A stretch of DNA of 64,000 bases from Bacillota bacterium (GTDB taxonomy: Bacteria > Bacillota_I > Bacilli_A > RFN20 > CAG-288). Each line of letters opens with the position of its first letter. The first letter of the stretch is position 1. The stretch is taken from NCBI GenBank assembly GCA_023459795.1, contig JAEWSP010000018.1:30946-94945 (forward strand), given 5' to 3'. This document shows, in pieces, positions 2,664 through 64,000 of this stretch. The notes under the pieces were generated by a model. The model made no database searches and was not told the origin of the DNA. It worked only from the letters and a program-made list of their open reading frames with translations. The position numbers and the translations under genes were made by a program.

Positions 2664-4568
2664 CTACTTCTTGTTTTTATTCAGCTTTCCAAGCATGAAC
2701 AGGGCCATGGAACGGAGGACGAGAAGGAAGGTAAGGCCGGTGTCTCCAAGGACCGAGATCCAGAGAGGAAGAGACGGGATGACCAGGTTCAGGATCATGA
2801 TCGTCACCTTCACTAGGATTGCAACAACGACGTTGGAGATTGCCATATTCTTCGTCTTCCCGGAAATCCGGATAAGCTTCTCCAGCTTGCCGGGGTTGTC
2901 ATCCAGGATGACAACATCGGCATTCTCGACAGCCAGGTCGCTTCCAAGCCCTCCCATAGCAATGCCGACATCGGCAAGGGACAAAGAGGCTGCATCGTTT
3001 ACCCCGTCTCCGAGATATGCCATCGTTCCTCCCTTCTTCTCCTTCTCGATCACGTCCGTCTTCTCCTTCGGGAGAAGACCGGAGTAGACAGCATCAATAG
3101 ACAGAGCAGAAGCCAAGGCCTCGGCATTCTGTTTCCTGTCTCCGGAGATAAGGACAGTCCGGATACCTTCCTTCCGTAAAGAAGAGATCAAAGCAGGGAC
3201 TTCTTCCCGCATCGTATCCGAAAGGAGCGCATATCCGGAGTACTCCCCGTCTACGGAAAGATAGAGAGCCGTCCCCTCTCCTTCGCTTTCTTCGATGCTC
3301 TCATCCTCGAGGAAGGATTTCTTTCCTACCTTGAGCTTGTGTCCTTTGTAGGTGCACTTGACTCCCTTCCCTTCGACTTCTTCGTAGTCCGATACAAGGG
3401 AAGGGTTCCCTTGCCTTGCCTTTTCTACCGCAATAGCAATCGGATGGCTGCTTTCCGACTCGGCAGCGGAGAGGTAATCCATAAACGTATCTTCATCAAT
3501 ACCGCGCGGCTTGACCAGGGCTAAAGACATCTTCCCTGTCGTCAAAGTACCGGTCTTGTCGAATCCGACTGTCTTAAGGGAGGCAAGCCTATCGAAGTAG
3601 GTGGCACCCTTAACCAGGATTCCGTACTTCGAAGCCAGGCCTATCCCGGATACATAGCTTAAAGGCACAGAGATAACAACGGCGCAGGGGCAGGAGACGA
3701 CTAGGAAGGATAGGGAGGTATAGATCCATCTCGACCAGATATCCTTGTTTCCGGCACCCTGGATAAGAGGAGGAAGAACCATGACAACGAGGGCAAGAAG
3801 CATAACGATAGGGGTATAGATCTTCGAGAACCTGGTGATGAACCTGTCCGCCTTGGACTTCTTCCCCTTGGCTTCTTCGACTAGCCGGCTCATCTTAAAG
3901 ACGGCAGAATCGGCATATGCTTTTTCTACCCTTGCCTTTGCCTCTCCGTGGGTAAGGATGGTTCCGGATACGATCGGATCCCCTTCCTTCTTTTCCACCG
4001 GGATCGGTTCGCCGGTAAGGGAGCTTTCATCGAACAGACCGTTTCCGGATAGTATCGTAGAATCGCAGAGAACCTTGTTTCCGGCACAGAGAGCAAACAC
4101 ATCTCCGACCTTCATCTCTTCCGGACCGACTTCTGTATAGGTTCCGTCCTTGCCAAGGACCTTTGCCTTCTCCTTCTTTAGATCAAGGGCAGAGGTTACG
4201 GCGTTCCTGGATTTCTCTTCCGCCATCTCGCTGAAGAACTCTCCGACCTGGTAAAGGATCATGACGAGTACCGCTTCGAGGTACTCGTTATGATCCTTTC
4301 CGAAAGCACGAAGAAGGAATGCACCAATGGAGGCAATAGTCATCAAGGAATACTCGTTGAAAGGCTTTCTTTCGGCAAAGGTTTCTTTTAAGGCATTCCA
4401 TACTACATCGTAGGAGATGATAACCCAGGAGGAGAGCATTACAATCAGGTTCACATAGAACGGGAAGTTCTCTTCGTTAAGAAGAAGACTCCCCAAAAGA
4501 GCAAGAGCTAAGGAAGCTGCAATCCTAAGGCAGAGAAGGAAGAGTTCCCTCTTGGTTTCCCCGGCCAT
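2664..4568 (-). CDS. heavy-metal-translocating P1B-type ATPase (Cd/Zn/Co-type), no N-terminal HMA domain
   Basis: 634 aa. It has the CPC transmembrane metal motif (SCPCAVV), the DKTGTLT phosphorylation site and the GDGVNDA hinge. No GMxCxxC domain is visible at the N-terminus. It lies immediately downstream of an ArsR-family gene. Confidence 0.85.
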   Translation of the reverse strand: MAGETKRELFLLCLRIAASLALALLGSLLLNEENFPFYVNLIVMLSSWVIISYDVVWNALKETFAERKPFNEYSLMTIASIGAFLLRAFGKDHNEYLEAVLVMILYQVGEFFSEMAEEKSRNAVTSALDLKKEKAKVLGKDGTYTEVGPEEMKVGDVFALCAGNKVLCDSTILSGNGLFDESSLTGEPIPVEKKEGDPIVSGTILTHGEAKARVEKAYADSAVFKMSRLVEEAKGKKSKADRFITRFSKIYTPIVMLLALVVMVLPPLIQGAGNKDIWSRWIYTSLSFLVVSCPCAVVISVPLSYVSGIGLASKYGILVKGATYFDRLASLKTVGFDKTGTLTTGKMSLALVKPRGIDEDTFMDYLSAAESESSHPIAIAVEKARQGNPSLVSDYEEVEGKGVKCTYKGHKLKVGKKSFLEDESIEESEGEGTALYLSVDGEYSGYALLSDTMREEVPALISSLRKEGIRTVLISGDRKQNAEALASALSIDAVYSGLLPKEKTDVIEKEKKGGTMAYLGDGVNDAASLSLADVGIAMGGLGSDLAVENADVVILDDNPGKLEKLIRISGKTKNMAISNVVVAILVKVTIMILNLVIPSLPLWISVLGDTGLTFLLVLRSMALFMLGKLNKNKK

Positions 4569-5574: not shown

Positions 5575-6591
5575 ATGGAAGAAAAGCAGAAGAATGACTC
5601 GGTGTTCATTAACCTTTTCAAGGGAGCTCTCTCCGGGCTTCTTTCGATGGTTCCCTTCCTGGACAGCAAAAGAGCAAGAGAAGACGTCTTAGTCACCTAC
5701 AGTTCCCGTACCTGGTCCTATATCCTCGGGTTTGCCATTGCTTTCTTTGTCTTCTCCCTCCTTCCCATCTCCGTCATGGAGAAGAACTTCTCCTATACGG
5801 TAAGGCTATTGGAAGCCGGATTCCTGTTTGGATCTCTGGTCGTGCTTCTTCTTCTGGTCTTTTTGGACAAGAAGGAGAAGATCGATCTTCTCCCATTTCT
5901 TCTCTCCCTCATAGGCGGAATAGGGATTGCTCTTATTTTCTATTTTGCCTTTACTCCGGCAAAGCTCTTAAGAGATGAAGAGCCGATTGCAGGAGCAGGA
6001 TTCTACAGCGTAATTATTGCCGTTGGTGGATTTTTATGCGGATACGCCGGGATCTCCATCGGATCCCTTCTAGCCGTCTCCGGTTCCTATGTAGGGCTTA
6101 TCGGAGTGATGTATCCGGCCGTCAGCTTTACGAACACGGATAAGAAGTCCGGAATCCTGATTATGGGAATCCTGTTCCTGGCTCTGTTCTCGGGACTGTT
6201 CCTCGGCCTTTATGCCGAAGGCAAAGACAGCAGAAAGAAGAACAAGGAAGCGATGCAGATCGGTTTCCTTCTTCCGATGCTTGTTATCCTGATAGTCTAC
6301 TTCGCCAAGAACAAGCCCCAAGCTATGGCTGACTCCGTCATGGTCCGGAAGCTGGTGAATTCCTGCTCCCTTATCTTCTTCTTCCTGATTGCCTTGATCC
6401 TTGGCTTATCTTCCCTTCTTCCATTATGGAAGGAACATCCTGCCTTCAAGATTTGGAAAAGGAAGAAGGATCTGGTAGACGGGCTTCTTGTGAAGAATGT
6501 AAAAGAAGAGAAGAAAGAAGATGAAAAAGAAAATGCCAAGGCCTTGGATGTCGATAAGCTGAAGAAGGCTTTGGAAGAAGAGGATAAATAG
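5575..6591 (+). CDS. hypothetical polytopic membrane protein with Lys/Glu-rich C-terminal tail
   Basis: 338 aa with many TM segments. The C-terminus is KKEDEKENAKALDVDKLKKALEEEDK. Confidence 0.55.
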   Translation: MEEKQKNDSVFINLFKGALSGLLSMVPFLDSKRAREDVLVTYSSRTWSYILGFAIAFFVFSLLPISVMEKNFSYTVRLLEAGFLFGSLVVLLLLVFLDKKEKIDLLPFLLSLIGGIGIALIFYFAFTPAKLLRDEEPIAGAGFYSVIIAVGGFLCGYAGISIGSLLAVSGSYVGLIGVMYPAVSFTNTDKKSGILIMGILFLALFSGLFLGLYAEGKDSRKKNKEAMQIGFLLPMLVILIVYFAKNKPQAMADSVMVRKLVNSCSLIFFFLIALILGLSSLLPLWKEHPAFKIWKRKKDLVDGLLVKNVKEEKKEDEKENAKALDVDKLKKALEEEDK

Positions 6592-9763: not shown

Positions 9764-10948
9764 ATGGATGAAACAGCGAATAAGCCGGAAGAGAAGAAAC
9801 AGATAGTAATGAACGCAATGCGTCCGACAGGAAAGCTCCATATCGGGCACTATGTCAGTGCATTAAGACTTACCCTGGAACTCCAGAATTCCGGAAAATA
9901 CGACGAAATCTATGAGATGATTGCCGATACCCAGGCCTTGACAGATAACTTCGGCGTTCCCCAGAAAGTCCGGGACAACGTAATCGAAGTCGCCCTCGAC
10001 TATCTTTCCGCCGGTCTTGATCCGAACAAGACCACCATCTTCATCCAGTCCCAGGTCCCGGAACTTACGGAACTTACCTGCTACTATCTCGATCTGGTCA
10101 CTCTTTCCCGTCTGGAGAGGAATCCGACCGTCAAGTCGGAACTTGCCCAGAAGGATTTCGGTGATACCATCCCGGCCGGATTCCTCTGCTACCCGGTCAG
10201 CCAGGCTGCAGATATCACGGCATTCGATACGGATCTGGTTCCGGTCGGAGAAGACCAGGCTCCGATGATCGAACAGGCGAATGAAATCGTCCATAAGTTC
10301 AATTCCCTTTACGGAAAAGGAAAAGAAATCCTTCATCCCTGCAAGATCCTTCTACCGGAGAACAAGGCTTCCTTACGCCTTCCCGGCACGGACGGAAAGG
10401 CTAAGATGAGCAAATCCATCGGGAACTGCATCTATCTTAGCGATGACAAAAGAACCGTTGACAAGAAGGTCTCCACCATGTTCACGGATCCTACCCATCT
10501 CAACATCACCGACCCCGGCCATACGGAGAACAACCCGGTCTTCATTTATCTCTCCGCTTTTGCTACCGATGAATCCTTTAAGAAATACTGGCCGGAATAT
10601 AAGAACCTGGACGAACTCAAGAAAGCCTATGAGAAGGGCGGACTCGGAGATGTACCGGTCAAGAAGTTCCTGGCCTCGGTACTTAACGAAGTCCTGGATC
10701 CGATCCGGGAGAAGAGAAAGTACTACGAAGCCCACATCGAGGATGTCTACAAGATCCTGGAAGTCGGTTCCAAGAAAGCAGAGGAGAAGGCTCTTGCTAC
10801 GGTCTACCGCGTCCGGAGAGCACTCGGCGTCAACTTCTTCCATGATCCGAAGCTGATCGAAAAGCAGTCGAAAGCCTATCGCAAGAAGCTTGCCGACGAT
10901 GCGGCAAGAGAAGAATACCTTGCCAAGCAGAAAGCCGGCCAGAAGTAG
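9764..10948 (+). CDS. trpS: tryptophan--tRNA ligase
   Basis: 394 aa. Class I signatures GKLHIGHY and KMSKS, plus YPVSQAADI. The C-terminal tail is basic. Confidence 0.8.
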   Translation: MDETANKPEEKKQIVMNAMRPTGKLHIGHYVSALRLTLELQNSGKYDEIYEMIADTQALTDNFGVPQKVRDNVIEVALDYLSAGLDPNKTTIFIQSQVPELTELTCYYLDLVTLSRLERNPTVKSELAQKDFGDTIPAGFLCYPVSQAADITAFDTDLVPVGEDQAPMIEQANEIVHKFNSLYGKGKEILHPCKILLPENKASLRLPGTDGKAKMSKSIGNCIYLSDDKRTVDKKVSTMFTDPTHLNITDPGHTENNPVFIYLSAFATDESFKKYWPEYKNLDELKKAYEKGGLGDVPVKKFLASVLNEVLDPIREKRKYYEAHIEDVYKILEVGSKKAEEKALATVYRVRRALGVNFFHDPKLIEKQSKAYRKKLADDAAREEYLAKQKAGQK

Positions 10949-10974
10949 AGAGAAGATCAGGGAAGAACAGCACC

Positions 10975-11006
10975 GGCCTTTTCCTATCCTGGGAAAAGGC
11001 CTTTTT
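10975..11006 (+). terminator. intrinsic terminator after trpS
   Basis: GGCCTTTTCC-tatcctg-GGAAAAGGCC followed by TTTTT. Confidence 0.8.
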
Positions 11007-11119
11007 CGTGTGTTCCGCTTTACTATCTTCCTCTCTTCCGTTATCCTTGAAGCAAAGCGGGCAAGGCTATTTTCTTCTTAATCCAGAAATAGGTTTTCTG
11101 CCGGAAGAAGGACCAAGCT

Positions 11120-12830
11120 ATGAACAAGAACAACGGGCGCCGTCTAATGGCCTTCCTCAACGACCATCTTGCCAAAGTAGGGAAAAAGTATCTCTCCGTC
11201 TTCGATGCCTTCGGAAAAGAGCCGGAGAGAATCAGCGAGAAGACGCTTCTTTCCATCGTGAAGAAGAACAGGAATACGGAATTCGGAAGGAAGCACCATC
11301 TCGACCAGATCCATTCCCTTTCCGACTACCGGAAGGAAGTCCCTGTTTCGGACTACGAAGACTATAGGGAAGCAATCCTTAGGATGCAGGACGGGGGAAA
11401 GGATGTCCTCTTCCAGGGAAAACCGGTCTACTATACGGATACTTCCGGATCGACGGGGAAGAGCAAACGGATTCCTATCTCTGCTACCCAGCAGAAGGCA
11501 ATGAAGAAGAAGAAAGGAAATCCTCAGATCATCCCCTATCTGGAGAAGAAGAACGGATGCTATGACAGGAACCACCGGAAGATCCTCGCCCTGATGGCGA
11601 ATGCCGACATCACCTATACGAAGGACCAAACCCCGATCGGGGATGTCGTCTCCCTGATGCTTTCCAAGGTCAGCGGATTGATGGGGCTCTTCTTTACCAC
11701 CCTTTGGCAAGCCTCACCTCGAACGAGATCCATGACCGCCTCTATGTCCACCTTCTCTTCGCGCTTCCGGAAACGGACATCTATCTCATCATGAGTGCCT
11801 ATCTCAGCGAAACCTGCGGAATGGTGAACTATCTCTTCCAGAACCAGGAACTCTGCTCCATGATCTTGCAGAAGGGAAAATATCGGACTGCGTAAAGCTT
11901 TCCCCCGCCCTAAAGAAGGAACTTGAAAAGAAGCTTGTCCCGCACCCGGAAAGGGCTGAGGAACTAAAAGAAATCCTGGCTTCCGGAAGAGACGGGATCC
12001 TGACCAGGATCTGGCCTAGCCTCACCGTCGTAAGCGGGGTCGGCAGTACAGAGAACAGGCTGCGCCCGTATACGCTTCTTGTAAAAAGGTATCTAGGAAG
12101 CAAAGGACATATTTATTATGCCGCCTATAATTCCTCGGAATCCTTGATGGGGCTGGCAACGGACTACGACACCTTCCTCTATGCACCGGTCCTGGATATG
12201 GCTTATCTGGAATTCCTTCCCCTCGATGAGAAGGAACAGCCGATCCCGGGGAAGATCCTTTCCGTATCCGAGCTTACGGACGGGGCAAAGTACGAGACTG
12301 TCCTGACCAGCCTCTCCGGTCTCTATCGTTATAGGATGGCAGACATCGTCAAGGTCAGCGGACGGAAAGGAAGGCTTCCTCTATTCGAAATCCTAGGACG
12401 GAACAAGGTCCTCCTCGATGTCATGGGAGAGAAATGCACCTTCCATCAGGCAGATGACGCGATTGCCCTCCTAGGAGAAAAGATCGGGGAGAAGGAACAT
12501 CCCATCTATGCCTACTGTGCCACGGAAGGGAATAAGGAAAACCGGTATACCTTCTTCCTGGAAATCAAGGATTCCTCTTCCCTGGATCCGAAGAAGACTT
12601 CTCTCCTTCTGAAGGATTCCCTAGCCCTTGCTTCCCCGGATATCCGGTATGCTTTCGAGGAGGAAGGGCTCCTTCCTCCCGAAGTCTTCTTCGTGAAGGA
12701 AGGGACTTTCCAAAAATACCTCCACAATGAGAACCGGGAAGGAGAAGAAACAAAGCACTCCATCAAGGAGATCAAAGTCCTGAGGACCGAAGAGCAGAAG
12801 AAGTTCTTCAGGGATCATATCGAAGGATAG
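11120..12830 (+). pseudogene. GH3-family (acyl-acid amido synthetase-like) gene interrupted by two -1 frameshifts
   Basis: The N-terminal part (11120-~11700) carries FGRKH...YRKEVPVSDYEDY...YTDTSGSTGKSKRIP. The GH3-like sequence continues in a second frame (~11700-11880) and a third frame (11880-12830). The three pieces together span about 570 codons. Confidence 0.7.
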
Positions 12831-12891
12831 GAAAAGAGGCGTCCCCTAGAGGATGCCTTTTTCTTGCCAATAAACAGTCTTCTCTTTTTTG

Positions 12892-13929
12892 TCAGTCTCT
12901 ATCCGGCAGTTTTCCCGGCGCTTTGGATATGCCTTCCAGATACGAGTCGAAGGACTCCTTCCTGAAAGCATCGATTGCAGCTTCCACTTCCGGGTCCAGA
13001 TCCTTTATCCGGCCTCTGCCGATTACAAGAGGATCGATATACCTCCTCTTGGAATAGACCTTGATCGTATGCTCCTTCTCCGTCTTTTGTTCTTTGACTT
13101 CGGTTAGGTTTGTGAACCATTCCCAGTTATTCTTTGTCTCTTGGTTACCTAGAATTTTCTTGATAACAACCTCTTCCGTAGAATAAAGGTCGTTTTCCGA
13201 AAGAACGGACAAGGAGAAAGCTCTCCTAATTCCTCTGGCCAGGGCCTCCATCCCGTACCTGTCTTCTGGAGTCACATATACTTTGGAGTTCTGTATGGTT
13301 GCAAGAGCAAACTTCCTGGCAAGCTCCTTAGAAGAAAAAGCAAGCTCTTCGACTCCGTCTTCGTTTACCGTAACGGAAAGATCCCGGTACATTGCTTCTA
13401 CTTCTTCTCTAGAGGCATGGGAATAGTTCAGGAAATTGGAGAGGGTGTATTCCAGCCTGTCGGCAGAAAGCCTGGGAGAATCGTTGTCTGCAATCGGATA
13501 GAGATGGTAGTTATCGACATCCTTGGTAGATAGTCCAAGCTTCATAAGCTCTTTCTGGATTACGGGATCTTCTTCGATGATGCAGGTTGTCCTCTCCTCC
13601 GTTGCTTCCTGGGTAAGGTAATCCCCTTTTACGAAGTCGACGACGTGGGCAAAGGCCGGGGTTGCTATATCATGGAACAGACCGGAAAGGCTCTCCTTCT
13701 GATTCTTCCGGAAGTGATAGACGATTAGAGCAACTCCTAGAGAGTGGACGAACCTGGAATAAGGTTCGAAATCCTTATAGAACGGGAAGGAGGTATATTC
13801 CATTCCGCAGTGCATCCCGACATGCTTTATCCGTTCCAGGGAAGGAGCAGGAAGGAAGCCTTCCAGAAAGGAAGGGATATCCTTGCTGTAAAGAGAAAAC
13901 AGGAACTGCTCTTTTTCTATGTGGGACAT
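12892..13929 (-). CDS. HD-domain phosphohydrolase family protein
   Basis: 345 aa with H...HD pattern (HSLGVALIV...LFHDIATPAFAH). Confidence 0.65.
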   Translation of the reverse strand: MSHIEKEQFLFSLYSKDIPSFLEGFLPAPSLERIKHVGMHCGMEYTSFPFYKDFEPYSRFVHSLGVALIVYHFRKNQKESLSGLFHDIATPAFAHVVDFVKGDYLTQEATEERTTCIIEEDPVIQKELMKLGLSTKDVDNYHLYPIADNDSPRLSADRLEYTLSNFLNYSHASREEVEAMYRDLSVTVNEDGVEELAFSSKELARKFALATIQNSKVYVTPEDRYGMEALARGIRRAFSLSVLSENDLYSTEEVVIKKILGNQETKNNWEWFTNLTEVKEQKTEKEHTIKVYSKRRYIDPLVIGRGRIKDLDPEVEAAIDAFRKESFDSYLEGISKAPGKLPDRD

Positions 13930-43364: not shown

Positions 43365-44255
43365 CTAATTAAGGAACTTTTCGCAGTTAAATATATTTTC
43401 TTCATAACTTTGTGTTAACCGGTCTTTCATCTCACCCTCTGTAACTTTTCCGTATTTTCTTTCATAAAGAGAAATTATAGAGGTCATTATTGGAGCGGAG
43501 AAACTTGTCCCACTCTTTTCATTAATAACGATTCCATTCTCACATTCGTCTAAACAGATTATATCTAAGCAGGGTAAAAGAAAACAAGAGGAGTTAAAGT
43601 TTGCTTTTTTCCAAACGTTACATTCCTTATCTATTCCTGAAACAGCAATGACATTTCCATACGCGGCCGGGTACAACAAACTATCTGTTCCGGAATTTCC
43701 GGAACTGGCAACAACAATAATTCCTTTGCTTATGCATCTATCGATGGCAGCCCTAATCAAGCCGGAATCGTTCTTTATTCCTAAAGAAATATTGACTATA
43801 TCAATGCCATATTCACAACAACAATACAATGCGGATTCAACTTCTTGAATAGAGGCAATATTATCTTTACCCTCAACATCAAAAATGTAGATATCAGAAC
43901 AACAAGCCAAACCCAAATTATTGTATTCGGAGCAACCAATTATTGAAAATGTACTTAATCCGTGACTGGAATGTTGCTTACGCTCAACAGTGTTGTTAAA
44001 AACAATGTTTTGATTATGATAAACCGAGTTTTGAATTCCGGAATCTAGGACAGCAATTTTCGGAAAATACACAGCTTTTTCGTTACCTTTGGATAAGTTT
44101 ATTTCTTGCAAATAGTAGGCATTGTAGGGGATACTATTACGGTTTTTTGTTAAGCAGAAAAAGAAAGTACAAAAAACAAGCAGACCGGTTACAAGCTTAT
44201 GCCTTCGCATCTTTTTGATTTTCCGGACCCTGCTTTGCCTTATACGCTTGGACAA
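43365..44255 (-). CDS. membrane-anchored subtilisin-like serine protease (peptidase S8), Cys-rich
   Basis: Catalytic triad contexts AVLDSG (Asp), HGLSTFS (His) and SGTSFSAP (Ser). It has an N-terminal basic stretch plus a TM anchor. Local GC is low. Confidence 0.75.
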   Translation of the reverse strand: MSKRIRQSRVRKIKKMRRHKLVTGLLVFCTFFFCLTKNRNSIPYNAYYLQEINLSKGNEKAVYFPKIAVLDSGIQNSVYHNQNIVFNNTVERKQHSSHGLSTFSIIGCSEYNNLGLACCSDIYIFDVEGKDNIASIQEVESALYCCCEYGIDIVNISLGIKNDSGLIRAAIDRCISKGIIVVASSGNSGTDSLLYPAAYGNVIAVSGIDKECNVWKKANFNSSCFLLPCLDIICLDECENGIVINEKSGTSFSAPIMTSIISLYERKYGKVTEGEMKDRLTQSYEENIFNCEKFLN

Positions 44256-44697
44256 ACTTCTTCTTTTTCCGGTATTCGAAAAGAAGAATGATAAAGATAG
44301 CTAATACCGATACGATTTCGACGATATAGCCGGTAACGGAAGAAACGAAGAAGTAGACAAGAGTAAAACTAATCCCTGCCACTACAAAGAAAAAACTGAA
44401 AAGAACGAATCCGTTATTAAAAAGATTCGGATAAGAAAAACTCAGATGGGCATCCTTATTGGATATTTCTTTTGTCGGATACTTTTCTTCTTCTGGCTTC
44501 CCTTTGGAAAAGAAACCAAGTTCAAAGAAGAAGTCTTCATAGCCATAACCAAGAAAGGCAGGAAGGCATAGAATCAGGCTTTTTCCAAAGTACTCCAAAG
44601 ATAAGAACTTTGTGTTTTCCAAGGTAAAACCGTAAACGAGGATTGCCAGGACTACGAATATAGGAGTACAAATCAAACGAAGTTGCCATTTTTTCAT
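44197..44697 (-). CDS. hypothetical 4-TM membrane protein
   Basis: The start is probably MKKWQLRL. It overlaps both neighbouring genes, suggesting coupled translation. Low GC. Confidence 0.5.
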   Translation of the reverse strand: MKKWQLRLICTPIFVVLAILVYGFTLENTKFLSLEYFGKSLILCLPAFLGYGYEDFFFELGFFSKGKPEEEKYPTKEISNKDAHLSFSYPNLFNNGFVLFSFFFVVAGISFTLVYFFVSSVTGYIVEIVSVLAIFIILLFEYRKKKKFVQAYKAKQGPENQKDAKA

Positions 44698-44699
44698 TT

Positions 44700-45530
44700 T
44701 TATTGAAGTCCAAACGCAAACTGACGTTCCCACGAAAATGAGATTGAAATACCATCTTTAATAAAATGAGAATAGATATAGTCGAAAAGCTCAGATAAAC
44801 AAACAGAGACAAAAAAATTCACAACAAACCTTACTAATGCATGTTCGGATAAAACAGAGATAGCAGAAACGACAGCCAAAATGACAGGATTACCAGTAAC
44901 AGCTCCAAAAAGAGCTAAACTAGCCGCCATAACAATAGGCGTTCTGGTTGCCATAAACAATGCCGTAATTCCTTCAACAATAAACCCTGTCCCATAAGAG
45001 AGAATTTTTCTACAGGTGGAGGCATCAATCTTGAAAACAAATTGATCCGGAACATAAATTCCCCACCAAAGTTTTTTCCAAGTTAAATTGAAGGAATTTT
45101 CCCCTTCGCTTTCTTCTTCAAAACCAGAATACTTAATTAGTGCCGATTCATAGGCATCGATGATTGTGTTTTCTCCAACAAGTTCTGCTTCTTCAGCAGA
45201 AAGCCGGTTTTCCAAAGAAGCAATAACGTTTCTAGAAACATCCAAGAAATAGTTGGATCCTTTTTCATCACATTCAGCAAAGACATTATCCAAACTATTC
45301 TTTGCCTTGGAAATGTTAGATAAGATTTCCTTTCTTGACGCAGGTACTTCAATATCACTAATAGAAAGGTTGGAATAGCAGTCTTCAATTTTATCAAGTT
45401 GGTCCTGAACCTCTTCTTCTTTGGCTGAATTTATTCCAACATTAGTTGGACCTTTGGAATTCTTTCCAAAACATAAAAAACTACTCAATACAGTTATGAT
45501 AGTCAATGCTTTTTTTAATGGCACTTGCAT
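44700..45530 (-). CDS. hypothetical secreted/membrane protein: signal peptide, helical acidic ectodomain, Gly/Ala-rich C-terminal TM helices
   Basis: The start is probably MQVPLKKALTIITVL. The C-terminus reads GITALFMATRTPIVMAASLALFGAVTGNPVILAVVSAISVL. Low GC. Confidence 0.5.
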   Translation of the reverse strand: MQVPLKKALTIITVLSSFLCFGKNSKGPTNVGINSAKEEEVQDQLDKIEDCYSNLSISDIEVPASRKEILSNISKAKNSLDNVFAECDEKGSNYFLDVSRNVIASLENRLSAEEAELVGENTIIDAYESALIKYSGFEEESEGENSFNLTWKKLWWGIYVPDQFVFKIDASTCRKILSYGTGFIVEGITALFMATRTPIVMAASLALFGAVTGNPVILAVVSAISVLSEHALVRFVVNFFVSVCLSELFDYIYSHFIKDGISISFSWERQFAFGLQ

Positions 45531-45979
45531 ATTTTTTGCCTCGTTGATAATCATAGTGTGTAGATAACTTAAAGTCAATATCGTGTTTTTTGATTACACC
45601 ACTTTTTTGTTCTTGTTATAAATTGTTTTCTAACACAACTGTTTTTTTATAAGAATCGTCTTTGCTTTGTGTTGCACCATGAGAGCAATTGTAAAGCTCC
45701 TCTTTTGGCTTCAAATGCTTTTCTGAGTTTTGCCCCCAAGAAATTTTGCGGTCTGAAAAGAAGCATATGCTGAACATTTTTCGTCAAAAGCTCTAGACAA
45801 AAACAGATTTGCTTTGGAAAGGGCATTCCGCGAACCATTTTCAAAAAGCAACGTCAATTCCAAAACTTAGATGCCAAAAACTTTCTAAGCTCGTCTTCTA
45901 ATTGCTTCTAATTCATTTGAACGCTTTTGCAACCGCCCCTTCATAAACAACCATTTCCGCTCTTTCCAGTAGCTGCGGC

Positions 45980-46885
45980 TTATTCTTCTTTCTTGTTGTT
46001 CTTCTCTGTTTCTTTTTCTTCTTTCTTCTCCTGCTTATGCTTCTGATGCTCTTTGTAGAAATCCTGATCGATCCAGAGGATCCGTTCCGAGAACTCCGGA
46101 TATTTCTTGAATACGAAATAGCTGGAGAGGATGCCGAGAAGCGCACCGCAGGCATCGGCAATGATGTCTCCGTCCGTATCCGTAACAGCATACCTATAGC
46201 CTGTAAATGTCTTGTAGTAATTCGTCATATCCGTCTCGCTGAGGTGGCAGTTCCCCGTATTCCACATCTCTCCGTTTGCTCCCCCGAGAATCCCCGTATC
46301 CTGATCGATGCAGGCATAAAGATCGTCCGGAATATATTTCTGCATGTTCGTATGGAAGATCAGGTCTGCTCCGCCTTCATACAGTTCCCACAAGGCTTCG
46401 ACGGCAACTCCGAAGAAGAAGCCGAAGAGAAGGCATAAGCCGGTCGCTTGTCTTCCTGTATATCCGTTCTTCTTCATGAGAAGCTTCATCAAGACAAAGC
46501 CTGCCAGGGCAAGCTGTGCCGTTCCTATCGTATGGAGGAATTTATCGAATCCGTAATCCCCGAGGTTGTAGTAGACCTGGCAGGCTTCTCCGAGGAAGAC
46601 GGAGACGAAGAGGTCAAAGGCGATGAACAGATCCACTGGCTTTCCGACACGGAAACCAGTCAGATGTTCGACAATCATCGGTCCCCAGATACCTAGGAAT
46701 GCGCAGGAAGACCCGACGATAACCGTCCTTGCCTGGACCGGATCCCACTGGAAAGGACGATGGGTAGCAATGCCGCCTTCCGGATAGAACGGCCTTACCT
46801 TGCAAAGGGATAGGATTGCAAAGACCATGAGCATGGAGAAAACAGAGGTTTCAATGATATACAGGGTCTTTCGGTAAGATGCCAT
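45980..46885 (-). CDS. hypothetical polytopic membrane protein with Lys/Glu-rich tail
   Basis: 301 aa with about 6 TM segments; GC is back at core level. Confidence 0.5.
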   Translation of the reverse strand: MASYRKTLYIIETSVFSMLMVFAILSLCKVRPFYPEGGIATHRPFQWDPVQARTVIVGSSCAFLGIWGPMIVEHLTGFRVGKPVDLFIAFDLFVSVFLGEACQVYYNLGDYGFDKFLHTIGTAQLALAGFVLMKLLMKKNGYTGRQATGLCLLFGFFFGVAVEALWELYEGGADLIFHTNMQKYIPDDLYACIDQDTGILGGANGEMWNTGNCHLSETDMTNYYKTFTGYRYAVTDTDGDIIADACGALLGILSSYFVFKKYPEFSERILWIDQDFYKEHQKHKQEKKEEKETEKNNKKEE

Positions 46886-55580: not shown

Positions 55581-55814
55581 CTAGGTTATTATAACGTAAA
55601 AAAGGATTCCTTTTCTCTTTTCCCAAGAAAAAGGAAAGCACTTCCTAATTGTTTCTTTTTTCTTCCTAAAAATAATCCTCTTCCTTTTCCCTTTGTTTTT
55701 TCCTGTTTTCTTCTTGAAAAGGGACTTATCATATTGGATCTATAAGTTAAATATTTGCTCTTTGCCTTAATAACCCATAAAATAGAACCGCCTTTTCCCA
55801 AATGGAGGCTTCAT

Positions 55815-58115
55815 ATGAGTAATAGAAAACGTACCGCCTTTGCCGGGCTTCTCTTTTCTGGTTTGCTTTTGATGACATCCTGCTCCTTAAACGCTTCCCG
55901 AGGCTCTACCTCTTCTTCTACCTCCTCTACTTCTGGCGCCCCTTCTACTTCCAGTAAAAAAGCTTCTGCAATCCAGATCGTTCCACCGGATAAGAAAGAA
56001 TACCGTAGAGGAGATGCCTTTGACATTTCCGGTCTTTCTGTTTCTTTGGTTTACGAAGATGGGACCAAAGAAGCAGCAAGCGACTATACCCTAACTTTTT
56101 CCGAAACGGGAGAAGAGATTGCTAACGGCGATATCCTGGATTACGAGGATGGAACCCATACGATCACAGTAGCCGTTACAGGAGTCGGATTTGCCAGCTT
56201 TGACATCTCGACCTGGACAGCAACTCCAAAGAGCAGATACCTGGATCTTACTTCTCTTCCGACAAAGACCATCTATATTGTCAAAAACCAGGAAGCTTTC
56301 TCTTCGGAAGGCCTGGGCGCTATTTATACCGTAATTTTCCAGGGATACCTGAACGGAGTCAAGAAAACGGAACAAAAGGATACGACTGTTACCGATCTTG
56401 TTACCTTCAGCATAGATGGAAAGACTCTTTCCGAAGGAGATGTTTTCACCGTAGATGATTACGGAACGAAAGCCGTAACCGTTACTTATTCAGAAGACGG
56501 AAAGACGGTCACAGCAGTTTTCTATATCACAATCGTAAGCGGAGACACGGCTCCGAAAAAATATACGGATACAACAAATCCCATCGTCACCGGTTCGAAT
56601 ACGATCAAGCTGACCATCACCAATCCCAACTCCGCTCATACGACCGGAACCAACAACTACATCGCTCCCGATGATGTAGATGCAACGAAGTACAGCATCC
56701 CTAACTACTATGCCAAGAAGAATTATGAAAACTGGCGTTACCTTCCGACAACCGGAAAGGTTCCGCTTTTGATTGTTCCGGTATTCTTCACGGATCAGAC
56801 TCAGTATGATACAACGGCAAACAGGGATCTGATGAAGAAGTGCTTCTTCGGAAAGAGCACGGACCTGAATTTCGAATCCCTGCATTCGTATTACTACAAA
56901 TCCAGTTACGGAAAACTGGATTTCACCGGCTCCATTGCTCCTTCTTTCTATCCTCAGGTCAGTATTCCTGCCCTGCAATCCACTTCTACGGAGTCTTTCA
57001 GCGAGGCATCCATGTTAACTATGCTGACCGCTCTTCCGGATTACCTGAAGACCCTTGGATATGATCTCACTCAATATGATTCCGATTCTGACGGATATTT
57101 GGATAGCGTCTGGATGATATACGGACACAGCACGGAAGCAAGCTCCACCTCCAACTGGTGGGCTTATTCCTCGACCCTTTCTGTGATCCCCGCAAGCGTA
57201 GCTTCTCCGACCGTCAACAACTTCGGATGGACTTCCTTTGATTTCCTCAATGATGACTTTAGCGGAGGTTCCTCTATTGCAAATGCCGGAGGAGATGCCC
57301 ACGTCCTGATCCATGAAACCGGACATCTTCTCGGCCTCTCGGATTATTATTCCTACTATTCCTCGACCTACGATCCTCTTGGCGGATACGATATGATGGC
57401 CTATAACGTCGGAGATCATAATCCTTATTCCAAACTCCTTTATGGTTGGGTGGATCCTTACCTCGTATACGGAAACAGCACCATCACCCTCAGCCTCAAT
57501 ACCAAAAACAATCACCAGGTCGTCCTGATTCCATATGATTCCAAAGACTACAGCGATACAAAGTATCAGGAAACCATCCAAAACGCAGACGGAACAACCT
57601 CAACGAAGACCTGGGTGAATCCCTATGATGAATATATGATTCTGGATTTCTACACGAACGCCAACATGGACAGCCAGTCCTATGACTGCTATGGGTCTGC
57701 TCCGATTAATGGAACCGGCGTTAGGATATACCACGCCGATCACCGCCTTTTCAAAGCCTCCGGTATTATCACCACCGTAACCGAATACTCAAATCCGGAT
57801 GCTCCTCTTTCCACAACGGATCTAGTAAATGCAGCAATCAATAATTCGGAAGGCGGCGATAGAGCCGAATCCGGTTTCGGGCTTCCTACCAGCTACGATG
57901 CCTTTGATGAACTCCGTTTGATAGCTAAGGACAAGTCTATCTTGGACCTGAATGCAACACAGAAAACCTATAAGGGTGATTCCACTGCTCCTTCCGTCCT
58001 CTTCAAAGCCGGCAGTTCCTTCTCTCTTTCTTCCTACTCTGCTTCCTTCCCGAAGACAACGACATTCAACAACGGCAAATCCTTCAGCTACAATATCTCC
58101 TTCTCCAACAACTAA
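55815..58115 (+). CDS. surface lipoprotein with Ig-like repeats and an HExxH zinc-metalloprotease domain (M6/InhA-like)
   Basis: The start is set at MSNRKRTAF, with lipobox LMTSC. Two or three Ig-like repeats (IQIVPPDKKEYRRGDAFDISGLSV...). Motif HETGHLLGLSDYY. Confidence 0.6.
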   Translation: MSNRKRTAFAGLLFSGLLLMTSCSLNASRGSTSSSTSSTSGAPSTSSKKASAIQIVPPDKKEYRRGDAFDISGLSVSLVYEDGTKEAASDYTLTFSETGEEIANGDILDYEDGTHTITVAVTGVGFASFDISTWTATPKSRYLDLTSLPTKTIYIVKNQEAFSSEGLGAIYTVIFQGYLNGVKKTEQKDTTVTDLVTFSIDGKTLSEGDVFTVDDYGTKAVTVTYSEDGKTVTAVFYITIVSGDTAPKKYTDTTNPIVTGSNTIKLTITNPNSAHTTGTNNYIAPDDVDATKYSIPNYYAKKNYENWRYLPTTGKVPLLIVPVFFTDQTQYDTTANRDLMKKCFFGKSTDLNFESLHSYYYKSSYGKLDFTGSIAPSFYPQVSIPALQSTSTESFSEASMLTMLTALPDYLKTLGYDLTQYDSDSDGYLDSVWMIYGHSTEASSTSNWWAYSSTLSVIPASVASPTVNNFGWTSFDFLNDDFSGGSSIANAGGDAHVLIHETGHLLGLSDYYSYYSSTYDPLGGYDMMAYNVGDHNPYSKLLYGWVDPYLVYGNSTITLSLNTKNNHQVVLIPYDSKDYSDTKYQETIQNADGTTSTKTWVNPYDEYMILDFYTNANMDSQSYDCYGSAPINGTGVRIYHADHRLFKASGIITTVTEYSNPDAPLSTTDLVNAAINNSEGGDRAESGFGLPTSYDAFDELRLIAKDKSILDLNATQKTYKGDSTAPSVLFKAGSSFSLSSYSASFPKTTTFNNGKSFSYNISFSNN

Positions 58116-61180: not shown

Positions 61181-61500
61181 GGTGGATTGAGTGGAAAACG
61201 GTACTTTTATCCACAGAAATCTGGGGATAAAAGAGCATATAATTTCATTAGTTTCGCTTAGCTTTTCGATATAAATAAAGGAAATTTTATTAAATTGCTG
61301 TTCAGTCTAAAAAGTTATCCACATTTCCACCGCCCTTATTAATATCCTTATTTCGTATTTGAAGAATGACATTCTATAGCCGGCAAAGCCGGCCCCTTCT
61401 CGGAAAACGGATAACAAAACAAATTTCGGCACGAAAAAGACCAGTTTATCGATTTACCTATAGCACCTACAAATATATATATTTATAATATATATATCGC
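61181..61500. promoter_or_regulatory. oriC part 2: DnaA boxes plus AT-rich candidate unwinding element between dnaA and dnaN
   Basis: Perfect TTATCCACA at 61207-61215 and 61315-61323, and TGGGGATAA at 61222-61230. An almost pure A/T run, largely alternating TA, spans 61469-61497. Confidence 0.75.
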
Positions 61501-61522: not shown

Positions 61523-62677
61523 ATGAAATTGACAATAAAGAGAACGGAACTTCTACGCCTTCTGACATACGCTATCCAGGCTATTCCGGCAAAGTCTGCC
61601 GAAGCCCAGTATATGAATTTTCTGATCGACTGCGAAGAGGACCATGTCGATATCATTGCCTCGGATGGCAATGTCTCGACCAAGATCAATCAGCCGATGA
61701 AGGATCCCAAAGGCAATGACGTCATTCTCAACATCGAAAAGGGATTGATCCAAACTCCCGCCAGAATGCTTTTAGATATCGTTGCTAAGATGGGCGGAGA
61801 TGTCGTCACCTTAGCATTAGTGGATTCCAATTTCCTGAATATCTCGGATGACACCACGGATTTCAATCTCGTTACCAAAGACGGAAAAGAATACCCGGAT
61901 GTCAATCTTACGGTTCCGGAAGGCAAGAAAGGTTTCGCTGTCTCCCTCAAGGATATGAAATCCCTCTTTGATACTACTAGCTATGCCGTTGCTACCCGTG
62001 GACCGAAGGAACTCTTCTACGGCATCAACGTCAAGGCTCATGGTGGCAAGCTTTATTTCATGGCTACCGATAGTTATAGAATGGCTCAGAATGCTGTTTC
62101 CGAACCGGATACCGAAGCAGAATTCTCCTTCACCTGCCCGATCCATGCTCTCAGCATGGTGACCGGCATCGGACAGACCGGAAACTGCCAGATCTTCATC
62201 GATGATCAGTCTGCTCTCTTCGTCACGGATGGCATTGCTCTTTCTACCAGACTTCTTAGAGGAGACTTCCCGTCTGTTGATCGTCTTATTCCGCCGGAAT
62301 TCCCGTATCAGGTAACGGTCAAGACAAGCGAATTCCTTTCTGCTGCAGACCGTGTAAAGATCATCTCCAGCGTCGAAGACAGGAACTCCCAGGTACGTTT
62401 CACTATCAGCCGCGAGAACGGCGTGACGATTTCCGCCCGTTCCACGAATTTCGGTACCTCCCAGGAAGTACTGAAGAATGCTACTTTCCAGATCAAAGAA
62501 GGAGAAGACGTCTTTGAGATCGGCTTCAATGTCGACTTCGCCATTGCTGCTGTCAAAGCCTTGGCAACGGATTCCTTCACCTTCGTCTTTGCTTCTGCTA
62601 CCCGTATGTTTATGGTAAAGAACGATAACCCTGAGAACATTCAGATTATTACTCCGATCCGTATGTCTTCCTTCTAG
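61523..62677 (+). CDS. dnaN: DNA polymerase III beta sliding clamp
   Basis: 384 aa with an N-terminus typical of beta clamps; directly downstream of dnaA. Confidence 0.92.
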   Translation: MKLTIKRTELLRLLTYAIQAIPAKSAEAQYMNFLIDCEEDHVDIIASDGNVSTKINQPMKDPKGNDVILNIEKGLIQTPARMLLDIVAKMGGDVVTLALVDSNFLNISDDTTDFNLVTKDGKEYPDVNLTVPEGKKGFAVSLKDMKSLFDTTSYAVATRGPKELFYGINVKAHGGKLYFMATDSYRMAQNAVSEPDTEAEFSFTCPIHALSMVTGIGQTGNCQIFIDDQSALFVTDGIALSTRLLRGDFPSVDRLIPPEFPYQVTVKTSEFLSAADRVKIISSVEDRNSQVRFTISRENGVTISARSTNFGTSQEVLKNATFQIKEGEDVFEIGFNVDFAIAAVKALATDSFTFVFASATRMFMVKNDNPENIQIITPIRMSSF

Positions 62678-62802
62678 CTCTCGACAGAAAACCAAGGAGA
62701 GCGGCAAGCTCTCCTTTTTCTTCTTTTTCCTTGCCGGTTTGGTTTCTTTCTTCGGGATGGGGAGAATATAATTAAGGCAACAGCGAAAGAGGAGGGACAG
62801 GT

Positions 62803-64000
62803 ATGGATAAAAACGAAGCAAATGAGTTCTGGGAGAAAATCTTCGGAACTGCAGAGGAAGCATATGACTATGCTTCCAGAAAAATGAAGAAGGAAGATTT
62901 CCAAAATCCTACTTCTCCTTACGGCTGGGATGTAGAACCTGTCCGTCCTTTAAGCCTAGGCGGAAGCGAGAATCAGGACAACCTGATTCCGGCTACTCTC
63001 TATGCCATTGCAAAAAGAGACGGCAAGACTTCTTTCAGCATCGGAAACCTTCATTTCGAAATGCGGAAAGGCAAAGCTTATAAAAATTTCGATCTTTATG
63101 ATGTAACGGATCATGATGCTCCGTTATCCTTGAATCCTTATGATTTATCCCAGGATAAGGATTTCCATCAGAACCGCAGGAATATTGCTTTAGGCCATCC
63201 GGAACAGGAAGAGCGGCTTCAGGCTGCTTCTTTCTCTTCTCTTCCGAATAAGGATTTCTCGACTCCGATTATCAACGATATGAATGAAACCACGAGCTTT
63301 GCCGCTCCTAAGGAAGTGACCTTGGAAGAAATACAAAAGGAACAGGAAGAAGGAGAAGAGACAACAAAAGAAACGGAAGCAGCAGAAACAGAAGAACCTG
63401 CCGAAGAAACAGAAGCGACTACGGAAGAGAACACCGAAGATAATACGGAAGAGACTACGGAAGAAAATACGGAAGCAACTACAGAAGAAACTGCCGAGAC
63501 TGTAGAAGAAACTAACGAAGAGACTGTAGAAGCAGAGCCGGAGACAGAAGCAGTGTCTCAAGAGAATTCAGAAGAGACTACGGAAGCAGAACCAGAGGCA
63601 GAAGAAGCTTCCGAAGAAACAAAAGAAGAAACAACAGAAGCCCCGGAAGAAGAAAAAATCGAAACGGAGACGGAAGAAGCAACCGAGCCTACGGAAGATA
63701 CTGCTGTCGTAGAAGAAACAAACGAAGAAAAACCGGAAGAAGAACAGCGAGAAGCTTCTTCTCCTGTTTTCTTTGCTGTCAATACTCCAACCGATTCCCT
63801 TCCGGACAACCCTAAGCCGGAAACGGATGATTCTTCTGAAAATGCAGAAACCGGGGAAGAAAAAGAAACAGAAGAAAAGACAGGAGAAGTAGCGGAAGAA
63901 GCAACAGAAGCTGTAGATGCCGCCCAGGGAGAAGACAATACGGAGCCTGCTGTAGAAGCAGAAGAAAAAACAGAAGAAGCGGAAGATAATCAGCAAGAAG
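62803..64000 (+). CDS. partial CDS (3' end outside window): degenerate HNH-like N-terminal domain plus very long Glu/Thr-rich acidic tail
   Basis: Not in the supplied track because it has no stop in the window. ATG at 62803 lies 7 nt after GAGGAGGG. I translated 399 codons by hand and found no stop. The minus-strand ORFs at 63190-63996 are shadows of its GAA-rich repeats. Confidence 0.7.
   Translation, partial: MDKNEANEFWEKIFGTAEEAYDYASRKMKKEDFQNPTSPYGWDVEPVRPLSLGGSENQDNLIPATLYAIAKRDGKTSFSIGNLHFEMRKGKAYKNFDLYDVTDHDAPLSLNPYDLSQDKDFHQNRRNIALGHPEQEERLQAASFSSLPNKDFSTPIINDMNETTSFAAPKEVTLEEIQKEQEEGEETTKETEAAETEEPAEETEATTEENTEDNTEETTEENTEATTEETAETVEETNEETVEAEPETEAVSQENSEETTEAEPEAEEASEETKEETTEAPEEEKIETETEEATEPTEDTAVVEETNEEKPEEEQREASSPVFFAVNTPTDSLPDNPKPETDDSSENAETGEEKETEEKTGEVAEEATEAVDAAQGEDNTEPAVEAEEKTEEAEDNQQE

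Follow-up and report, generated by a model that had tools for sequence, protein, structure and literature searches.

A conserved protein with a pseudo-HNH head, an acidic spacer and a coiled coil, encoded directly after dnaN in a metagenome-only clade of Bacillota

In Bacillus subtilis the genes that follow dnaN are those of RecF and YaaA/RlbA. The same slot downstream of dnaN is taken by another gene in a Bacillota bacterium (GTDB lineage Bacteria; Bacillota_I; Bacilli_A; RFN20; CAG-288), of which a stretch of 64,000 nucleotides was analysed (assembly GCA_023459795.1, contig JAEWSP010000018.1, positions 30,946 to 94,945 of the forward strand; called the window below). This gene, named X here, starts at position 62803 on the plus strand, directly after dnaN, and its product has neither sequence nor domain similarity to RecF or YaaA/RlbA. 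We read X as a real, conserved gene that encodes a large cytoplasmic and most likely non-catalytic scaffold protein, and give this reading a rough probability of 0.55. The folds that make up the protein are known; its architecture and the family of long proteins to which it belongs are undescribed.

Translation of 62803-64000 on the plus strand gives 399 codons with zero stops and the N-terminus MDKNEANEFWEKIFGTAEEAYDYASRKMKKEDFQNPTSPYGWDVEPVRPLSLGGSENQDNLIP. The frame is open at the window end and runs past it, which is why X is missing from the mechanically made list of open reading frames. An earlier note on this DNA, written from the letters of the window, had pointed out the unlisted frame after dnaN, and the sequence quoted there matches the translation. 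A HMMER search with residues 1-181 against 1.84 billion representative proteins yields 191 matches with E<=1e-3, 21 of them at E<=1e-30, and the 41 long proteins among the best 150 of these 191 matches constitute the long family discussed here. The best match, P0001, is a full-length ortholog of 1,157 residues encoded on contig L003, which is 98.1% identical to the window across 9 kb. The extension of the frame to its stop, which the earlier note had proposed as a check, could thus be read from a near-identical contig.

Over the 399 shared codons, the window gene and P0001 differ by 9 synonymous and 5 non-synonymous changes and by one in-frame indel of 3 nucleotides. The cluster of P0001 at 90% identity has 12 members from JGI, ENA, NCBI and Logan assemblies, of which nine are 1,156-1,157 residues long and the other three are shorter fragments; all six named members are labelled “hypothetical protein”. 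Since the frame is intact in independent data sets, X is a real gene, and the interruption of the frame that the earlier note had named as a possible refutation is not seen in these full-length copies.

No model in Pfam, NCBIfam, PADLOC or PHROG covers the long family. Pfam searches with P0001 and with the orthologs from loci L001 and L002 returned nothing meaningful, the rows for NHS and RecA_C being below cut-off and driven by composition, and the window frame together with two full-length orthologs gave zero matches to PADLOC. In a word-indexed homolog search the head of the protein was unmatched and the profile of its C-terminal domain matched one unannotated fragment, yet the family is present in that collection; a negative from such a search does not amount to absence for families that are rare or rich in low-complexity sequence. 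A search of genome contigs with the head found no relatives, and a dnaN query on the same contigs yielded L001 and L002 instead.

The N-terminal domain of X (residues 1-135), referred to as the head, is closest to the small HNH endonucleases of Bacillota, such as P0079, P0065 and P0091 (Pfam families HNH_4, PF13395, and HNH, PF01844). The pattern W..FG....A.DFAGR.....Y.N..S..GW.ID.I.P.S.GG.....NL and the subsequent beta-hairpin are common to both. The small proteins keep the residues D-H...N...(H)..N..K and pass the Pfam cut-offs, with P0079 scoring 29.6 bits against HNH (cut-off 21.4) and 30.1 bits against HNH_4 (cut-off 22), whereas the head of X has E-P and AIAKR at these places and no Pfam match. 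It is also longer at its C-terminal end, by a conserved extension and helix (residues ~100-130). A further relative, P0052, scores 32.5 bits against HNH_4 (cut-off 22), and the weaker HMMER matches include proteins of 100-140 residues with the pattern GWNIDHI.P.S.GG....NL...H..TN.EK.

The alignment of the heads with their intact relatives (alignment A1) shows that the window head keeps W42, P49, G54 and the structural N60, while the D-H dyad is replaced by E45-P46 and TN.EK by AIAKR. Pro46 thus stands at the position of the general-base His, and Ile69 at that of the last metal-ligand Asn, which is K, I, Y or M across the family. A residue census covered every domain copy in the best 150 HMMER matches. 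None of the 41 N-terminal copies in the long family has the general-base His or the last Asn; 36 keep the Asp of the dyad and all 41 the structural Asn. Among 76 single-domain relatives the same residues are present in 56 (His), 47 (last Asn), 58 (Asp) and 72 (structural Asn). Comparison by hhalign of 32 long-family heads with 19 intact small HNH proteins gives a probability of 99.85% and an E-value of 1.1e-30 over 125 columns, in a register that places the intact D-H onto E45-P46 of the window head, and phmmer matches the head to intact HNH proteins with E-values of 1e-7 to 1e-12. These alignments identify the head as a genuine HNH derivative, which is predicted to have lost catalysis long ago and throughout the family. 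Because the catalytic residues are lost, nuclease activity of the head is predicted to be absent.

An HNH-like head without its catalytic His is what the earlier note had described, and the last metal-ligand Asn proves to be gone as well. Its proposed test of the head against profiles bears out the HNH similarity, which emerges from phmmer and from comparison of profiles; the window head alone finds nothing in direct Pfam, NCBIfam, PHROG or PDB-sequence searches. The phrase “dead nucleic-acid-binding fold” holds in part, in that the fold appears dead; the retained DNA binding that it implies is not favoured by the net charge of the head.

The AlphaFold2 model of the head, made from a 69-sequence alignment, has a mean predicted local distance difference test score (pLDDT) of 93.8, and in this model the head has the beta-beta-alpha core fold. 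The mixed profile A1 matches Cas8f-HNH fusions in the PDB through the same motif (E 5.9e-4). The HNH domains of Cas9 (PDB codes 7enh, 8f43, 7mpz and 8d2k), the Gme HNH protein (4h9d) and McrA (6ghc) share 8-14% identity with the head. Unlike these beta-beta-alpha-metal nucleases, X is missing the catalytic residues and has no RuvC or guide-RNA context, and the Foldseek similarity is non-significant. A limited literature search for HNH domains that are inactive or degenerate brought up only papers on the engineering of Cas9.

That X might nevertheless be an active HNH nuclease, in the form of a homing, restriction or defence enzyme, or a decaying remnant of a mobile element, draws on the distant intact-motif relatives of the head, which match phage HNH endonuclease families as well as the Pfam HNH models. 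This is barely credible for X itself, where neither the general-base His nor the last metal-ligand Asn occurs in a single one of the 41 N-terminal copies and the head has no PHROG or Pfam match of its own. The frame is moreover intact, the differences between strains lean toward synonymous ones, and the chromosomal position is conserved.

Along the full-length protein the pseudo-HNH head is followed by a short linker, a spacer of ~270 residues and a coiled coil of ~300 residues, after which come a brief helical stretch, the second HNH-like copy and, last, a cyclase-like domain of ~195 residues. Residues 450-756 of P0001 show a strong periodicity of 3.5 residues (z up to 6.2 versus shuffled sequences), while the heptad signal is absent from residues 169-336. 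The head profile matches each long protein twice, the second match lying ~300 residues from the C terminus. This second copy is more eroded than the first, and its Asp, His and last Asn are all gone. The last 310 residues of P0001 are modelled at a pLDDT of 93.4, with the second HNH-like copy packed on a beta-alpha-beta-beta-alpha-beta domain that carries further helices.

In its outline X resembles the SMC and Rad50 proteins, in which globular N- and C-terminal modules are parted by a long coiled coil, although this likeness is an architectural analogy. X differs from them by the ~270-residue disordered acidic spacer and by having no ATPase motifs and no identified hinge or zinc hook; a Walker A/B head of the ABC type was looked for in full-length orthologs through the SMC_N and AAA families of Pfam, and no match was found. 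The terminal modules are adjacent in compact relatives of X, described below, and hence may meet in the folded protein.

The C-terminal domain is, in the model, of the cyclase-homology fold, that is, similar to class III nucleotidyl cyclases. The class III cyclases (PDB codes 4clf, 2w01, 7r65 and 8jsz) and the cyclase-like ATP-binding protein 6yii share 5-10% identity with it, and there is no match at the level of sequence: the profile of the module finds nothing among PDB sequences, and Pfam finds nothing on full-length orthologs. The first strand of the domain reads [IL]F[VI][KR]..G, with Lys or Arg in all 41 long proteins at the place where, by motif spacing and predicted secondary structure, the first metal-binding Asp of the cyclase motif F.D..G is expected. 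The hairpin between strands 2 and 3 is variable and contains no GD or GGDEF-type motif. On these features our reading of the domain is that it is cyclase-like and probably non-catalytic.

If the domain were instead active, or sensed a nucleotide second messenger as its ligand, X would be a signalling or defence protein with the HNH-like parts in a regulatory role. The motif LLN[ST]Y, in which N and Y are nearly invariant in the long as well as the short relatives, speaks for some such function. The apparently replaced metal Asp and the variable hairpin make it very improbable, as do the missing Pfam, PDB-sequence and PADLOC matches, and X is a single-copy, core and syntenic gene that lies in no defence island.

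The acidic region that follows the head was taken in the earlier note for a tail; it is the first part of an internal linker in a protein of ~1,000-1,300 residues. The composition described there stands, since E, T, A, P and N make up 76% of residues 177-399, with 37% Glu, 7% hydrophobic residues and a net charge of -82; in the full protein the net charge is about -96 over residues 181-450. The codon GAA is used 70 times among the 223 codons of this region. The Phe/Ser/Cys-rich minus-strand frames opposite it are, as had been supposed, mirror images of a coding strand rich in GAA and ACN. Across the 41 long proteins the linker between the two HNH-like copies ranges from 388 to 878 residues and is acidic in every case (net charge -36 to -197), and in most of them its most acidic third is the first, which adjoins the head. 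The sequence of the spacer is of low complexity, repeat-derived and poorly conserved. Variable length of the region behind the head, for which the earlier note had suggested comparing orthologs, is found in the family.

The dense negative charge recalls the tail of HMGB1 and the DNA mimics Ocr and ArdA. Characterised DNA mimics, these last two among them, are folded and display their charges in ordered arrays. The acidic region might accordingly be thought to imitate DNA, with the dead HNH domain keeping its binding to nucleic acid or a partner, and to sequester or regulate DnaA, DnaN and nucleoid proteins in place of yaaA/recF. The extreme charge density would suit this role, as would the family-wide placement of the acidic segment right after the head and the conserved position of the gene by dnaN and oriC. 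We consider it unlikely, since the acidic stretch of X is an internal spacer and not a tail, is low-complexity and repeat-derived with variable length and sequence, unlike the folded mimics, and adjoins no basic DNA-binding domain. Homology to RecF or YaaA and a clamp-binding motif were not found, and such a role leaves two thirds of X unaddressed.

The position of X is conserved, which bears out the earlier note on the slot after dnaN. The order dnaN-X-M20 peptidase is found in nine of ten species-level loci, namely in the species of the window and L003, in L001 (Candidatus Enterosoma merdigallinarum) and in L004, L005, L006, L010, L011, L012 and L013, with heads that are 32-47% identical to that of the window. 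In the tenth locus, L002, X lies 3.2 kb downstream of dnaN with two genes inserted between them. The arrangement in L011 is operon-like, with a gap of 4 nucleotides between dnaN and X (3297-3302) and an overlap of X with the M20 peptidase gene (6571-6574).

Because X follows directly after dnaA, oriC and dnaN across a diverged clade, the scaffold may act at the origin, the replisome or the nucleoid; this is the most tentative step of our reading. A stronger form, in which X would be an unrecognised, lineage-specific replication or chromosome factor of probably wall-less gut Bacilli of the RFN20 type, has the pseudo-domains docking on DnaN, DnaA or DNA and the spacer tuning initiation or the nucleoid as a decoy, the whole replacing the yaaA/recF neighbourhood. 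We hold that form to be decidedly unlikely.

In Mycoplasma, large acidic coiled-coil proteins organise the cell interior or the membrane. X could similarly be a scaffold of the cytoskeleton or cell architecture, unrelated to DNA, in a bacterium that is probably wall-less, and its adjacency to dnaN would then be accidental. The coiled-coil rod with an acidic low-complexity region would fit such a role, and the globular parts are not basic. The nearest named relative, with a DnaN 66% identical to that of the window, is Candidatus Enterosoma, which belongs to GTDB order RFN20, family CAG-288 (PMC8035907), and for this family a lack of peptidoglycan has been predicted (PMC10868615). This is a serious rival, though we find it doubtful: the N terminus, as read from the translation, has neither membrane anchor nor signal peptide, the linkage to dnaN is tight, including the short gap and the overlap in L011, and both terminal modules derive from enzymes of nucleic acids or nucleotides.

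In the scaffold reading that we prefer, the rod would mediate dimerisation or higher-order assembly, while the head and the C-terminal module would act as binding modules and not as enzymes. The acidic spacer would be a flexible, self-repelling tether between them and could in addition attract basic partners as an electrostatic decoy.

Several points weigh against this reading. The architecture past residue 399 is taken from P0001 on the 98%-identical contig L003 and from the family, not from the window, and the register of the metal-binding Asp in the cyclase-like domain was set without superposition. In the Foldseek comparison of the head with the PDB the best E-value is 0.63, and the top rows, mostly HNH nucleases, are informative by rank order only. 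The head has a net charge of -6 and every other globular part is also slightly acidic, so that generic DNA binding is not suggested. A regular-expression search of the 41 family members for a clamp-binding motif of the QL[SD]LF type gave scattered, non-conserved matches and none in the window protein. The synteny itself may be just gene order inherited in small genomes.

The origin of the long form may be seen from compact relatives of ~400-760 residues (among them P0051, with 403 residues, P0055, P0059 and P0129), in which HNH domain, HNH-like copy and C-terminal domain stand back to back. They have neither spacer nor rod, and the first HNH domain is intact in several of them (P0051, P0055). 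Their C-terminal domains are homologous to those of the long proteins (jackhmmer E 1e-27 to 1e-33). Two of the compact relatives were checked for genomic context, and dnaN is not nearby. The long form would have arisen through loss of the nuclease site and an insertion of spacer and rod that parted the two HNH copies. A possible Asp in strand 1 of the C-terminal domain of P0051 and P0052 was noticed by eye only, in a segment outside the profile alignment, and no claim is made on it.

Proteins with several copies of the extended HNH-like domain were also encountered: P0045 and P0046 (335-351 residues), P0080 (306 residues) and P0053, P0057, P0064, P0066, P0081 and P0127 (560-890 residues). Some have three or four domain copies in tandem; in others the same C-terminal domain and further unknown sequence come after two inactivated copies. 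The extended HNH-like domains form a diverse and unnamed superfamily in which the D-H dyad was lost repeatedly.

A motif F.[LIV]P....I...V[LF], for example RFMIPTPSSIIKNVF, occurs 1-10 residues past the head (residues ~135-155) in about 15-18 of the 41 long proteins (P0005, P0019, P0021, P0023, P0026-P0030, P0033, P0036-P0038, P0042 and P0043); the window protein does not have it. Since the search model of this motif derives from the very sequences in which it occurs, its fixed position alone is informative.

The features of the locus are collected in Table 1. The hairpin downstream of dnaN suggests that X is transcribed separately from dnaN in the organism of the window. Three orthologous loci, L001, L004 and L006, have the -10-like hexamer at about the same distance upstream of X, and a consensus promoter scan found no -35 element to pair with it in the window. 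Set against the terminator and hexamer of the window, the tight spacing in L011 indicates that transcriptional coupling to dnaN seems to depend on lineage.

DnaA boxes (TTATCCACA, with 0-1 mismatch) have 28 matches in the window versus 10.3 expected. With clusters on either side of dnaA and an AT-rich stretch, the region looks like a bipartite oriC, and the cumulative GC skew has its minimum near 60-62 kb. The start of X lies ~1.5 kb from oriC, the clusters of boxes being 1.5-3.5 kb upstream of it. A one-mismatch box (TTATCCATA) at 62802-62810 on the minus strand, over the start codon of X, is absent at the starts of L001, L002, L004, L005 and L006 and is therefore probably a chance occurrence.

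Table 1. Coordinates of gene X, its parts and the neighbouring origin region in the window
Feature	Position	Strand	Basis or remark
DnaA boxes (12), upstream of dnaA	59278-59674		window
dnaA	59744-61135		window
DnaA boxes (3), between dnaA and dnaN	61207-61323		window
(AT)n-rich stretch, just 5' of dnaN	about 61460-61500		window
dnaN	61523-62677	+	window
Terminator-like hairpin, 9-bp stem and T-run	62694-62716	+	just 3' of the dnaN stop (62677)
TATAAT, -10-like hexamer	62767-62772	+	31 nucleotides 5' of the X ATG; putative promoter element
Shine-Dalgarno sequence GAGGAGG	62789-62795	+	7 nucleotides 5' of the X ATG; read from sequence
X, first 399 of ~1,157 codons	62803-64000	+	translation; full gene in L003 at 10001-13474
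Head domain, residues 1-135, predicted HNH fold without catalytic residues (pseudo-HNH)	62803-63207	+	
Remnant of beta-beta-alpha-metal core, residues 40-75 (YGWDVEPVRPLSLGGSENQDNLIPATLYAIAKRDGK)	62920-63027	+	alignment A1, residue census
E45-P46 codons, position of the catalytic Asp-His dyad	62935-62940	+	translation, alignment, census
Post-head linker, residues 136-176	63208-63330	+	varies between orthologs
Polyanionic low-complexity spacer, residues 177-399 in the window	63331-64000	+	reaches ~residue 450 in the full protein
Degenerate tandem repeats, periods 12, 24, 36 and 54 nucleotides; 12-nucleotide unit ACTACGGAAGAA = T-T-E-E	63384-63641	+	inside the spacer
Three overlapping Phe/Ser/Cys/Arg-rich shadow open reading frames, not genes	63190-63561, 63558-63938, 63568-63996	-	

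Two other segments of the window were noted. The segment 43365-45578 on the minus strand, in the bin 44001-46000, has a G+C content of 0.36 versus ~0.48 elsewhere in the window. It contains a 296-residue open reading frame with a subtilisin-like GTSFSAP motif and frames for hydrophobic-looking proteins of 178 and 292 residues, and by its composition it may be an acquired island. A 786-residue open reading frame at 55755-58115 on the plus strand starts with a hydrophobic segment that ends in LLLMTSC, resembling a lipoprotein signal, and carries a HETGH motif of the metalloprotease type; its ortholog in L003 has no Pfam annotation.

Three unnamed domain families are defined through X and its relatives, the extended HNH-like domain, its degenerate second copy and the cyclase-like C-terminal domain, all of which have so far been annotated just as “hypothetical protein”. 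If the scaffold reading is true, X would be a clear natural case of exaptation, in which two nuclease folds and a cyclase fold were rebuilt, without their chemistry, into a large structural protein. Should the synteny be merely historical, X would still represent a new protein family, of modest interest. Given its fixed place by dnaA, oriC and dnaN in a clade known from metagenomes alone, X is a concrete candidate for a lineage-specific part of replication or chromosome biology in gut Bacilli with reduced genomes.

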